NCBI GenBank assembly: GCA_043751595.1 | Contig: JAYUZR010000030.1 | Coordinates: forward strand, 1 to 48,929 | DNA length: 48,929 nt | Source: Candidatus Berkelbacteria bacterium | GTDB lineage: Bacteria; Patescibacteriota; UBA1384; CAILIB01 | Reading direction: 5' to 3' | Shown here: positions 3,969 through 48,823 of the stretch, one piece after another | Layout: every line of letters starts with the position of its first letter | How positions within the stretch are numbered: the first letter of the stretch is position 1 | Notes under the pieces: generated by a model | Database searches by the model: none | What the model was told of the DNA's origin: nothing | Seen by the model: the letters and a program-made list of their open reading frames with translations, nothing else | Position numbers and translations under genes: made by a program

Positions 3969-5243
3969 ATGCACCGTGGCCTAAGCGAGGTTATCAATGC
4001 TCGTGTGTTATACATCGATATGAACTCCTTCTTTGCCAGTGTAGAGCAAGAGTTTAATCCTGCTCTCCGCAGCAAACCAGTTGCCGTGTGCTCGCATACC
4101 ACCAATAAAGGCACCGTTTTAGCGGCTTCCTACGAGGCAAAGGCATTGGGGATAAAAACAGGCATGAAGGTCGGCGATGCTCGCGGAATCTTCCCTAAGC
4201 TGCACGTCTGCGAGCCAACCGCCAACCGGTATAAGCAGGTCCATATCCAAATCATGAATCTTCTCCGGCAGCACTGCGGGCCAGAGGTACAGGTGCGTAG
4301 TATCGATGAAGCCGCTGTCTTTCTCTCCAAGAACTGGCAAGATCCAGCATTTGCACACGCCATGGCGCTACGCCTTAAAGAAGCCATCGCGCGCGAGGTA
4401 GGCAGCTGCATCACCTGCTCCATCGGCATTGCCCCCAATAGCCTCCTCGCGAAGCTCGCCACTGATCTTAAAAAGCCCAACGGCCTGGTGACCATTACCA
4501 AAGAAAATCTGCGCGAAGTACTTGGTAGTATTCAGCTCACCGATCTCCCCGGCATTGCCGGCCGTAATGCTCTGCGATTGGCCGCTAAAAACATCTACAC
4601 CCCGCTCCAGCTGGCAGATACTCCTTTCGCCGAGCTAGTAGCCCTCTTTGGTATCTGGGGCGCTTCTTGGTGGTGGCGCCTGCATGGGTACGAGCCCGAT
4701 GCCTACTGGAATAGCAGCCCCATGAAAACAATGAGTCACGAGCACGTACTCGAAAAGTGGCTCCGTGGGCACGATGCCGTGGTACCAAGCGTGCGCACCA
4801 TGGCTGATCGCCTCGTACATCGGTTACGCAAAAACCAGTTTAACTGTACTGGCGTAGGTATTTCGTTGCGCCTGGTAGATCTCCCCGCCATTTGGCGGGA
4901 GCGCAAGTTTGATGCACCAGTAGCCGATTACCCAACCCTGGTTTCCACCCTCATTCAGCTCACTAATTCTATCCCTCTTCAGGATGATACCGTAGTGCGC
5001 AAAATAAGTGTGCATTGCTGGGGATTACATCAAGCAAGTAGCGGCGTGCAGCTCGATCTTTTTCAAACCGTGGCCCCCAAAGAACAGATTAGCGCCAGTG
5101 TTGAGAAAATTAGAAGTCGCTACGGCTTTGCCAGTATCCAGCCAGCAAGTAACTTGCTCCGAAAAAGAATTGGCGACGAGCAACTTGGCTTTGGCCGCAT
5201 TAAAGATAGGGCCGAAGCCTCGGCATTGTCGGCACGGGCGTAA
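3969..5243 (+). CDS. dinB: Y-family DNA polymerase IV
   Basis: YIDMNSFFASVE, AASYEAK, SIDEA and LAKLATDLKKPNG motifs. Start moved to ATG 3969, after the terminator. Confidence 0.92.
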   Translation: MHRGLSEVINARVLYIDMNSFFASVEQEFNPALRSKPVAVCSHTTNKGTVLAASYEAKALGIKTGMKVGDARGIFPKLHVCEPTANRYKQVHIQIMNLLRQHCGPEVQVRSIDEAAVFLSKNWQDPAFAHAMALRLKEAIAREVGSCITCSIGIAPNSLLAKLATDLKKPNGLVTITKENLREVLGSIQLTDLPGIAGRNALRLAAKNIYTPLQLADTPFAELVALFGIWGASWWWRLHGYEPDAYWNSSPMKTMSHEHVLEKWLRGHDAVVPSVRTMADRLVHRLRKNQFNCTGVGISLRLVDLPAIWRERKFDAPVADYPTLVSTLIQLTNSIPLQDDTVVRKISVHCWGLHQASSGVQLDLFQTVAPKEQISASVEKIRSRYGFASIQPASNLLRKRIGDEQLGFGRIKDRAEASALSARA

Positions 5244-5268
5244 CCTGGTACATTCGGGCACGTATGCG

Positions 5269-5487
5269 AATTCGGATGCGCCCGTTGCTTCGCAACGTGC
5301 TCGTCTCCTCGCTCGCAAGCGTTTCCTCGAGATATCCTGCCTTCGGCAGGATATAACTCTCCTCGCTCGCTCACAACAAAACAAGTAAACTTGTTTCTAC
5401 AATTCGGAGGCGCCCGTTGCTTCGCAACGTGCTCGTCTCCTCGCTCGCAAGTTAGTCATGCCTACGGCATACTAACGTTGCTCACTC
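5269..5487 (+). repeat. Array of three hairpin units upstream of tRNA-Ser, including a 51-bp direct repeat (5269-5319 / 5401-5451, 1 mismatch)
   Basis: Units start at 5274, 5329 and 5406; each ends in TCTCC-TCGCTCG. Confidence 0.85.
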
Positions 5488-5575
5488 GGAGAGATCGCAT
5501 AGTGGTCTAGTGCAGCATCTTGGAAAGGTGCCGTACCGAAAGGTACCGAGGGTCCGAATCCCTCTCTCTCCGCCA
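5488..5575 (+). tRNA. tRNA-Ser(GGA)
   Basis: GGAGAGA/TCTCTCC acceptor stem, GCATC-TTGGAAA-GGTGC anticodon arm, long variable arm GTACC-GAAA-GGTAC, discriminator G, encoded CCA. Confidence 0.95.
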
Positions 5576-5611: not shown

Positions 5612-5647
5612 TGATGGGGATGGATGGGAAAGGACTCCTGCGAAGCT

Positions 5648-5720
5648 AGGGTTCGCCTGCTCAATTCCCTTTGAACGAAGTGAAGAGCAGTGCAGAGCGA
5701 AGCGAATGCAATCCCTCTCC
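5648..5720 (+). repeat. tRNA-downstream element, copy 1
   Basis: 5648-5690 is 35/43 identical to the reverse complement of 48248-48290. Ends with AATCCCTCTC, a copy of the tRNA-Ser 3' T-stem. Confidence 0.8.
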
Positions 5721-48196: not shown

Positions 48197-48300
48197 GCCC
48201 CAGCGGGAAGTCGTCACTTCGCTCCTTAACCGCTCTGAGCTACGCTGCTGTTTTTCGCTTTGCTCAAATGGAATTGAGCAGCTGAACCCTGCGGGTTCAA
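48197..48300 (-). repeat. tRNA-downstream element, copy 2
   Basis: Shares the 43-nt core with 5648-5690. Bounded by an inverted T-arm copy (GCGGGTTCAA, 48291-48300) and TCCCGCTGG (48200-48208). Confidence 0.8.
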
Positions 48301-48306
48301 CCTTGC

Positions 48307-48344
48307 CCAACATAAAAGAGCCTTGAAAGGCTCTTTTATGTTGG
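48307..48344 (-). terminator. Perfect 17-bp inverted repeat overlapping the tRNA-Glu CCA
   Basis: CCAACATAAAAGAGCCT-TGAA-AGGCTCTTTTATGTTGG. Confidence 0.7.
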
Positions 48345-48418
48345 TAGCACCAGCGGGATTTGAACCCGCGATCTCTTGGATGAGAACCAAGTGTCCTAGA
48401 CCACTAGACGATGGCGCC
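48342..48418 (-). tRNA. tRNA-Glu(CTC)
   Basis: GGCGCCA/TGGTGCT acceptor stem, CTTGG-TTCTCAT-CCAAG anticodon arm, GCGGG-TTCAAAT-CCCGC T-arm, CCA. Confidence 0.95.
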
Positions 48419-48823
48419 GAAGTGAGGGAGCGGAAAAGTAAGTTAACTTACTTTTCGCGAACGAACGAGGCGTTATGTCGCAAAGCGACATGGCCGAACA
48501 TTAAGCGAACGAGGTGCCGATACCGCGAAGCGGTAGGGCGCCTATTACCGAGCGAGGCGCTGTATATCGCGTACCGATATGGCGCTTTACTCAAGAAGAA
48601 AATAAGTCTTCTCAGTCACGAATGACGTTTTGGAAACTACCAGACAATCCTCCTTCTGTCCAGACATAGCACCGCATTAACTTCCTATGCGATAATAACT
48701 ACATGTATAAGTGGCTCGCCCACTCCCTTAATCGATGGCGCCGAGTGAGAGAGCAGAGAAGTAAGTTTACTTACTTCTCTGCGAACGATCGAAGCGCCTC
48801 TCTCGCGGCAGCGAGATGGCGCC
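48419..48823 (-). repeat. Array of four hairpin units and a duplicated tRNA 5' end upstream of tRNA-Glu
   Basis: Units at about 48462-48495, 48506-48542, 48549-48585 and 48786-48823; 48409-48472 is repeated imperfectly at 48733-48797. Confidence 0.8.

Follow-up and report, generated by a model that had tools for sequence, protein, structure and literature searches.

Tandem hairpin arrays keyed to the 5′ ends of downstream tRNAs in a Candidatus Berkelbacteria genome and its relatives

We analyzed a 48,929-nucleotide (nt) stretch of DNA from Candidatus Berkelbacteria bacterium (assembly GCA_043751595.1, contig JAYUZR010000030.1, positions 1–48,929; hereafter the window), in which the tRNA-Ser(GGA) gene is preceded by an ordered array of hairpins. 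Similar arrays stand upstream of other tRNA genes in the same genome and in related genera, and the 5′ outer arm of their units copies the first nucleotides of the tRNA that follows. The array pattern is robust and, as far as we searched, undescribed. Bacterial pre-tRNA leaders are normally short and unremarkable; these very small genomes devote 100–250 nt ahead of about a dozen tRNA genes to ordered, tRNA-keyed hairpin arrays that are kept across genera.

Architecture of the region upstream of tRNA-Ser(GGA)

The window is contig C30 of the source genome (G000; 976 kb in 62 contigs, 97% complete, GC content 0.50). Its array occupies the non-coding stretch between a DinB-like gene, ending at 5243, and tRNA-Ser(GGA), which tRNA calling placed at 5488–5575 with an encoded CCA; all features of the array are read on the plus strand. 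An extended −10-like motif of the form TGnTAnnnT at 5246–5254 is the putative promoter of a transcript comprising the leader and the tRNA. The following region, 5269–5487, consists of three stem-hairpin-stem units, two linker hairpins and the motif CTCACTC abutting the tRNA. Unit 1 (5269–5319) has a 5′ arm at 5274–5280, an inner hairpin at 5283–5297 with a 6-base-pair (bp) stem and a TTC loop, a 3′ arm at 5302–5308 and the motif TCGCTCG at 5309–5315. Unit 2 (5329–5374), an inverted repeat, has its 5′ arm at 5329–5332, an inner hairpin with a 10-bp stem and a TTC loop at 5332–5354, its 3′ arm at 5358–5362 and TCGCTCG at 5363–5369, continuing into CTCAC. It is followed by a linker hairpin (5379–5396) with a 7-bp stem and a TAAA loop, belonging to the second hairpin type described below (hp2). 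Unit 3 (5401–5451; 5′ arm 5406–5412, inner hairpin 5415–5429, 3′ arm 5434–5440, motif 5441–5447) is the second copy of a 51-nt direct repeat whose first copy holds Unit 1, with 50 of 51 positions identical. The inner hairpins of all three units have a perfect stem and a TTC loop. The last hairpin (5452–5475, TAC loop) stands in the hp2 position and is similar in its core to the inner hairpin that the orthologous tRNA-Ser unit has in G006, a genome of the same family but of another genus. The pyrimidine-rich CTCACTC (5481–5487), with A at −4 and C at −1, ends directly 5′ of the tRNA +1.

The units, the three TCGCTCG motifs (starting at 5309, 5363 and 5441), the linkers and CTCACTC were all present where the initial annotation had placed them. 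Its proposal that the outer stems copy the acceptor stem of tRNA-Ser held in part: 4–5 nt per strand (GGAG.. / ..CTCC) agree, not the full seven. The leader RNA is predicted to fold far better than shuffled sequences (z = −6.6, none of 200 shuffles being equally good), and the minimum-energy fold of leader plus tRNA keeps the cloverleaf intact. Contigs aligned to this region break inside the repeat, and a unit with another inner hairpin stands on one of them, which belongs to a co-occurring relative. As a separate observation, the T-loop of this tRNA-Ser(GGA) reads TCCGAAT at 5549–5555 in place of the usual TTCGAAT, so that position 55 is C.

The unit arms copy the 5′ end of the downstream tRNA

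In G000, the observed match of units to their own tRNA was reached in 6 of 20,000 permutations of the tRNA assignment, computed over 22 automatically called candidate units of 12 leaders, a set that includes false units. Exact copies of the tRNA's own first 7 nt numbered two in G000 against 0.56 expected. For G006, we analyzed its 949-kb contig C1 with 42 tRNAs and found a much clearer signal, with 14 such copies within 300 nt upstream compared with 0.86 expected from non-cognate pairs. We then pooled 137 distinct tRNAs, comprising those of G000 and G006 and 29 loci from other genomes of the family; the 29 loci had been selected for the module and are hence enriched, and non-cognate pairing within the same set served as the control. 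In the pooled set, 26 tRNAs account for 31 exact 7-mer copies where 1.67 are expected; for exact 9-mer copies, the count is 14 and the expectation 0.10. The tracking of the neighboring tRNA by the outer stems, as first proposed from the window alone, is thus borne out, mainly for the 5′ arm.

The 5′ outer arm corresponds to the first 5–15 nt of the cognate tRNA. The longest copies in G006 comprise 12–15 nt in Pro and Arg leaders, and one leader contains about 38 nt of the 5′ half of tRNA-Ile. Among 41 units chosen for an exact copy of tRNA positions 1–5, the identity of 100% at these positions is given by the selection; it falls to 66%, 63%, 46% and 29% at positions 6–9 and to background beyond. 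The bases preceding the copies also resemble the context of real tRNAs, with A at −4 in 21 of 41 units versus 54 of 137 tRNAs and a pyrimidine at −1 in 31 of 41 versus 103 of 137. Counted from the first copied base to the loop, the 5′ arm measures 13 nt in 18 of the 41 units and 12–14 nt in 27. The copy remains identical to the tRNA at places where genera differ, as at position 5 of Arg(TCG) and in variants of Lys and Thr.

The 3′ arm follows another rule. As read by eye from the unit listing, it is the Watson-Crick complement of the 5′ copy and not a copy of the 3′ strand of the tRNA. In all three clear cases among the alanine units, C takes the place of U70, so that the G3:U70 pair is absent; by the same reading, position 68 is A in two valine units and position 72 is C in the glutamate units. 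An automatic comparison of the complement with the tRNA 3′ strand was too strict and left four informative cells, which is why the cases were read by eye. Since the 3′ arm complements the copy and ignores the wobble pairs of the tRNA, each unit is a hairpin based on the 5′ end of the tRNA and no genuine mimic of the acceptor stem. The initial annotation had taken the units for acceptor-stem mimics; the 5′ strand alone is copied, and the units lack a following NCCA. For the same reasons, with TCGCTCG replacing NCCA, they do not qualify as mimics of acceptor-stem identity.

A shared grammar of units, motifs and a second hairpin

The leaders share one order of elements: a promoter-like motif, one to three units, each a hairpin of about 13 bp, then hp2, a C/U-rich motif and the tRNA. 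The motif after the units (TCGCTCG or TCGCTCAC) and the one before the tRNA (CTCACTC, sometimes TCGCTCACTC) appear as versions of a single C/U-rich word flanking hp2. The apex of hp2 is conserved (consensus AAGCAAGCTT) and its stem is variable. RNAalifold predicted no structure from the alignment of hp2 leaders, and the hp2 pairs were then set by hand and counted. Across 21 leaders from six genomes, all nine pairs had changed on both sides and 80.9% of the cells were paired, which none of 500 shuffles reached, with the caveat that related sequences may beat shuffles without any structure; registers slid out of place gave 23–55% pairing. Quasi-palindromes can be perfected by template switching. 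The covariation is accordingly weak proof of a function as RNA, because template switching at quasi-palindromes gives compensatory changes without selection.

The loops are similarly uniform. Of 41 unit loops, 33 read T-N-C closed by a C-G pair and two read G-N-A. A survey of 28 leaders found T-N-C in 29 of 35 triloops and, as hp2 loops, CAAG (10), TAAA (4) and CTAG (2).

Arrays are concentrated upstream of tRNA genes

ARAGORN called 63 tRNAs in G000, of which we kept 37 as bona fide (contig longer than 10 kb, encoded CCA, seven acceptor pairs). By eye, the grammar was recognized upstream of about 13 of these 37: Ser (GGA, CGA), Glu (CTC, TTC), Pro (GGG, TGG), Ala (TGC, GGC), Arg (TCG, TCT), Asn, Ile (TAT) and Tyr. 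A covariance model (R1), which extends from the motif through hp2 and the second motif to nucleotide 25 of the tRNA, recovered 11 of the 13 arrays together with an orphan module described below; Pro(TGG) and Ala(GGC), which have variant motifs, were recognized by eye only.

We next defined a strict unit as a perfect stem of at least five pairs with a T-N-C loop closed by C-G and TCGCTCG (at most one mismatch) 2–14 nt after it. Of 12 such units in G000, 10 had a tRNA on the same strand no more than 400 nt downstream, as did all 7 on contig C1 of G006; the total of 17 of 19 compares with about 1% expected. With looser rules, 12 of 126 and 8 of 73 units were near tRNAs, and chance hairpins elsewhere swamped the count. 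The link between repeats and tRNA genes suggested by the initial annotation is strengthened by these counts; units equally frequent away from tRNAs, which would have spoken against it, were looked for, and the strict units cluster at tRNAs.

Matches to the pattern away from tRNAs in G000 were located at C20:42349, C28:28262, C42:10384 and C47:1200, which look like chance occurrences inside apparent coding sequence. A further one, C11:11813, belongs to a locus (L171, C11:11780–11960) with a pair of motifs, TCGCTCG and CCTCACT, and hairpins but with no tRNA after them; the locus may represent a module in decay or a different small RNA gene. The RNase P RNA gene, which lies at C44:11922–12272 in G000, has no such leader.

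The 26 excluded tRNAs of G000 lie mostly on contigs of 2–4 kb; many lack an encoded CCA and several adjoin rRNA genes, and they look like DNA of foreign organisms or assembly fragments. Eight contigs of this size (C10, C17, C18, C26, C29, C50, C52 and C59) carry tRNAs, several of them next to rRNA gene ends; C18, for example, has 11 tRNAs after the end of a 16S gene. The leader grammar was found on none of these contigs, which probably derive from other organisms in the bin and do not enter any count.

Distribution within the family and class

A pattern search for the pair of motifs first flagged several genomes of the family, and their loci turned out to be full arrays. With R1 at E ≤ 1e-3, matches were found in 10 of 11 family genomes; eight of these gave 6–14 matches, G001 and G002 gave one each, and G007 (88% complete) gave none. 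We also searched an evenly sampled set of 151 genomes of the class at E ≤ 1e-5 with stricter filters. Twelve genomes matched: nine of the own family, counting G000, both members of a second family and one of 19 members of a third, the only match among about 128 genomes outside the first two families; the rest of the sample, covering about 38 families, yielded no match. R1 is therefore a clean, searchable signature that separates the own family and one other from nearly all genomes of the class sample.

The same layout, with copies of 11–12 nt, is seen at loci of the second family, and other genomes of the own family bear full arrays at further tRNAs, e.g., Thr, Lys, Val and Arg (GCG). Conservation of the hp2 apex and of the flanking motifs extends over at least eight genera and into the second family. 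Seven tRNAs have arrays in both G000 and G006. The two genomes have in common a two-unit Pro(TGG) leader with a special variant of the motif and one inner hairpin at Glu(CTC); the arrays therefore predate the split of the two genera, as judged from these sequences.

One repeat that resembled the grammar was rejected. Locus L024 (G025:C5:1–420) and other contig ends of G025, a genome of another family, contain tandem repeats of about 36–42 nt with the end words TCGTTCG and TTCTCACT, and no tRNA adjoins the repeat in L024. This looks like a different repeat system.

Arrays lie between a promoter-like motif and the tRNA

The motif TGnTAnnnT occurs 14–45 nt before +1 at 24 of 93 tRNAs without arrays. 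Among 44 array-bearing tRNAs, 25 have the motif, and in 24 of these the nearest copy lies 95–257 nt before +1, beyond the array; the background is 0.22 occurrences per 260 nt. A scan for consensus −35/−10 promoters gave no match, and no terminator was found after the units. Because they are located between an extended −10-like motif and the tRNA, the arrays are probably long transcribed leaders. On the 949-kb contig of G006, the GC skew puts array-bearing tRNAs on both sides, and we found no link to the direction of replication; strand bias of long open reading frames disagreed with the GC skew on this contig.

Possible functions and origins of the arrays

We tentatively favor, at rather less than even confidence, the reading that the arrays are transcribed leader hairpins serving as RNase P-type pseudo-substrates, born from fold-back duplication of the tRNA 5′ end. 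With the leader region transcribed, each unit would form a minihelix-like pseudo-substrate, and RNase P would cut at its 5′ edge as it does at the tRNA +1. The structured leader would thereby be cut up and removed, or the rate at which the true site is used would be adjusted. The units would have arisen by DNA-level duplication of the leader end together with the tRNA 5′ end and would then have become palindromic; the palindromes may persist because an unpaired 5′-strand copy would vie with the genuine one for pairing to the 3′ strand of the tRNA. An RNA-level role is favored because the edge of the unit helix coincides with the mature +1, a point that is defined only in RNA, and also by the fixed sense orientation, the position within the presumed leader, the RNase P-like context before the copies, the conserved single-stranded motifs and the persistence across genera. 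The length of the helix points in the same direction, being near that of the stacked acceptor and T-stems of a tRNA, which measures 12 bp.

Several observations weigh against this reading, and most of them suit an explanation at the level of DNA. Over 69 stems with 515 pairs, the internal mismatches comprise one G·T, three A·C and five others, so the stems are near-perfect Watson-Crick palindromes and show none of the tolerance for G·U pairs that functional RNA usually displays. T-N-C loops are unremarkable as RNA; the opposite DNA strand reads G-N-A, the loop of a stable mini-hairpin DNA. Truncated units, near-identical duplicates and longer pieces of tRNA 5′ ends, 15 and about 38 nt in length, suggest a turnover of DNA for which no RNA function is needed. 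In addition, arrays stand at only about a third of the tRNAs, TCGCTCG takes the place of NCCA after the units, and in the minimum-energy fold of the Ser leader, Units 1 and 3 pair with each other and not locally. The arrays might accordingly be by-products, in which the tRNA 5′ end and a few bases of the leader were repeatedly duplicated by replication slippage or template switching at stable hairpins and the palindromes perfected afterwards by template switching, with no RNA function or at most the neutralization of a stray copy. We consider this unlikely on balance, yet a serious contender. It would account for the palindromes without an excess of G·T over A·C, the loop type, the identity of Units 1 and 3, the half hairpins found besides truncated units, a further tRNA fragment of 10 nt, the variation in unit number between orthologous leaders, and the 3′ arm that complements the copy instead of the real tRNA strand. 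However, DNA gives no reason for a palindrome to end exactly at the mature tRNA +1. The conservation of the flanking motifs and of the hp2 apex beyond the genus and the family, and the retained layout of orthologous arrays between genera, also speak against a mere by-product, as does the orientation of the loops, which is fixed relative to transcription even though the array genes of G006 lie on both strands with respect to the GC skew.

The remaining explanations appear much less probable than a DNA by-product. A folding switch or attenuator in cis, in which a closed unit lets the tRNA fold whereas the 3′ arm of a unit that is opened or has lost its 5′ arm prevents maturation by pairing with the 5′ strand of the tRNA, would provide feedback for each tRNA; the arms are complementary to the first 3–7 nt of the tRNA by construction, and the copy follows changes of the tRNA between genera, as base-pairing logic requires. 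We nevertheless regard such a switch as improbable, given that no ligand or sensor is evident, that closed units are far more stable than any pairing with the tRNA, and that the units are not followed by a terminator. Nor does the tRNA contain anything that corresponds to the inner hairpin, identity being at background after position 9. Marginally more doubtful still is the idea that the leaders encode a new class of small RNAs, namely stable hairpins of about 30 nt released by RNase P at the 5′ edge and trimmed at the 3′ motif, each bearing the 5′ end of one tRNA and acting in trans as tRNA-specific decoys or guides, e.g., against nucleases or toxins that recognize the 5′ or acceptor ends of tRNAs, or as sensors linking the output of a tRNA gene to the state of its product. 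A small non-autonomous mobile element targeting the 5′ ends of tRNA genes, with the arm as a guide or a target duplication, seems very unlikely. The 5′ arm does resemble a duplicated target, nearly the same 19-nt inner hairpin is found at Ala(TGC) and Pro(TGG), and orphan modules occur, one with 10 nt of tRNA-Glu in the window and an inverted one in G006. Against it stand the confinement of 17 of the 19 strict units to tRNAs, the lack of any one sequence of which the units at different tRNAs would be copies, the orthology of arrays between genera, and the missing or distant enzymes listed in the next section. Least probable of all, in our view, are decoys for readers of acceptor-stem identity such as aminoacyl-tRNA synthetases or toxins that cut acceptor stems. 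The arms are specific to the tRNA and the helix is nearly as long as a minihelix, but the three clear Ala units have G3-C70 and not G3:U70, Val and Glu units likewise follow the complement, the discriminator and CCA are missing, and four or five of the seven acceptor pairs are copied in the window.

The reading as RNase P pseudo-substrates, or as regulators, would offer a natural system for studying how RNase P chooses its site and a control of maturation for individual tRNAs in reduced genomes. As DNA by-products, the arrays would represent an unusually active and precise fold-back duplication aimed at the starts of tRNA genes, bearing on the origin of tRNA fragments and palindromes. Small RNAs of the kind described would constitute a regulatory or defense layer for each tRNA without a known counterpart.

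Comparison with known families and systems

No Rfam family other than tRNA reached its gathering score in the window, and at E ≤ 5 the matches were at chance level. A T-box or another known leader riboswitch was rejected, as no Rfam covariance model matched. A tRNA or tRNA pseudogene (RF00005) was likewise discarded: the calls in the window are the two real tRNAs only, with no tRNA match on 5269–5487 at E ≤ 5. In the 97%-complete G000, we detected no Y1/HUH transposase (PF01797), no TnpB-type domain (PF07282) and no reverse transcriptase (PF00078), and the sole tyrosine recombinase (PF00589) is encoded on contig C34, not in the window. The initial annotation had considered the footprint of an element or decoy attachment (att) sites, and had suggested looking for a co-occurring HUH/RAYT, reverse transcriptase or tyrosine recombinase gene; the first two are absent from G000 and the last occurs on C34 only. 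Both ideas are without an agent because the genes for recombinase, transposase and reverse transcriptase are absent or distant.

The same searches disposed of several candidates. Repetitive extragenic palindromes (REP) and bacterial interspersed mosaic elements (BIME) mobilized with RAYT were rejected, given the 17 of 19 strict units at tRNAs and the lack of a PF01797 match. Insertion sequences of the IS200/IS605 type or other miniature inverted-repeat transposable elements (MITE) lack PF01797 and PF07282 matches; a target duplication might explain the repeated 5′ arm but not the complementary 3′ arm. Integrase att-site fragments of tRNAs do not agree with 5′ fragments 30–130 nt apart and a PF00589 gene elsewhere, and a retron or other reverse-transcribed hairpin DNA was dismissed for want of a PF00078 match. 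Our full-text literature search, which covered few subscription journals, returned no description of such arrays. With no Rfam match and no described REP or MITE family in that search, the system appears undescribed, as the initial annotation had supposed.

The closest known arrangements concern RNA processing. One tRNA-like processing signal is mascRNA. The t-elements of plant mitochondrial mRNAs are short acceptor-stem-like helices in longer transcripts that may serve RNase P and RNase Z as marks for cutting (PMC1920247). The units have the layout of a t-element, with single-stranded sequence on both sides of an acceptor-like helix: a 5′ leader bearing A at −4 and a pyrimidine at −1, and a C/U-rich 3′ tail; their transcription is presumed. 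Unlike t-elements as described there, the units copy the 5′ strand of the downstream tRNA and stand in tandem in its leader, have a 3-nt loop instead of a T-loop, and are accompanied by fixed C/U-rich motifs and a second hairpin type. The minihelix model substrates of RNase P, made of acceptor stem and T-arm, resemble the units in being a stacked helix of about 12–13 bp with a 5′ leader. The units differ in being natural, genome-encoded and tRNA-specific, in their 3-nt loop and in lacking a 3′ RCCA, which type A RNase P uses.

Other comparisons concern DNA. Fragments of tRNAs at att sites are typically 3′ fragments left downstream by integrases, with the element in between. Like the att-site fragments of integrative elements (PMC9897764), the arrays are partial tRNA copies beside an intact gene; unlike those, they are 5′ fragments of 5–15 nt folded into hairpins, spaced as given above and with no integrase nearby. 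Plastid trnF pseudogene arrays are also tandem partial tRNA copies beside a working gene, made by DNA-level duplication (PMC3786074); they concern one organelle gene without a common hairpin grammar, whereas here about a dozen tRNAs per genome are involved and the motifs are conserved across genera. REP and BIME sequences share with the units that they are short extragenic palindromes, often clustered. In contrast to REPs, which are dispersed copies of one family sequence with a RAYT gene, the units have no common stem sequence and are not accompanied by a Y1 transposase. Finally, the mini-hairpin DNA GCGNAGC is very stable and is reported at priming sites and phage N4 promoters (PMC13037366). 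The strand opposite the tRNA ends the inner hairpins in C-GNA-G, often as the exact heptamer, which resembles the mini-hairpin so described. The exact heptamer, however, is enriched only about 2.6-fold in leaders (10 against 3.8 expected in G000, 11 against 4.2 in G006), with eight per genome in the other orientation, and, as noted above, we found no link to replication direction.

The tRNA-Glu(CTC) leader and orphan modules

A second array of the window precedes tRNA-Glu(CTC), called at 48342–48418 on the minus strand, and occupies 48419–48585 on the same strand. Three units with Glu-type arms are followed by hp2 and the pre-tRNA motif, in agreement with the initial suggestion that the same grammar occurs at tRNA-Glu with Glu-specific stems. 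By sequence reading, unit 1, with its arms, inner hairpin and TCGCTCG, spans 48549–48585, unit 2 spans 48506–48542 and unit 3 spans 48462–48496; the inner hairpin of unit 2 is identical in the orthologous leader of G006. The hp2 (48430–48459) and the pyrimidine-rich motif (48419–48429), together 48419–48459, were assigned by sequence reading and R1.

About 320 nt upstream of the real tRNA-Glu gene, also on the minus strand, lies an orphan duplicate (48733–48823) composed of a unit, hp2, CTCACTC and only the first 10 nt of tRNA-Glu, with an R1 match at 48717–48800 (E = 3e-6). It may have arisen by partial duplication, or an insertion after position 10 may have left it as a scar. In G006, a full inverted module (loci L125/L126, C1 at about 252700–252810, plus strand) is located between the genes for tRNA-Glu(TTC) and tRNA-Lys(CTT) and is not followed by a tRNA.

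Further observations near the tRNA genes

The DinB-like protein encoded upstream of the Ser array has distant homologues only, with 26–35% identity over most of the protein and varied phylum labels. On contig C1 of G006, at about 800700–801140, four tRNA-like genes without CCA lie directly past a 16S 3′ end, unlike the other tRNAs of the contig, and this segment may be foreign or misassembled.

Many tRNAs have a second conserved element beyond their terminator hairpin. Nine copies in G000 were retrieved with an iterated nhmmer profile, and eight of these lie 44–93 nt past the tRNA 3′ end on the same strand. Two copies are in the window, at 5647–5694 on the plus strand and 48247–48298 on the minus strand, and the others are at C35:38345–38411, C53:15415–15477, C35:72265–72333, C22:15977–16038, C35:27242–27292, C14:7780–7816 and C44:9973–10039. 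The element has no Rfam match. One of its hairpins is of the GGTTCG type and others have GAA loops; weaker relatives were recognized by eye after several more tRNAs.

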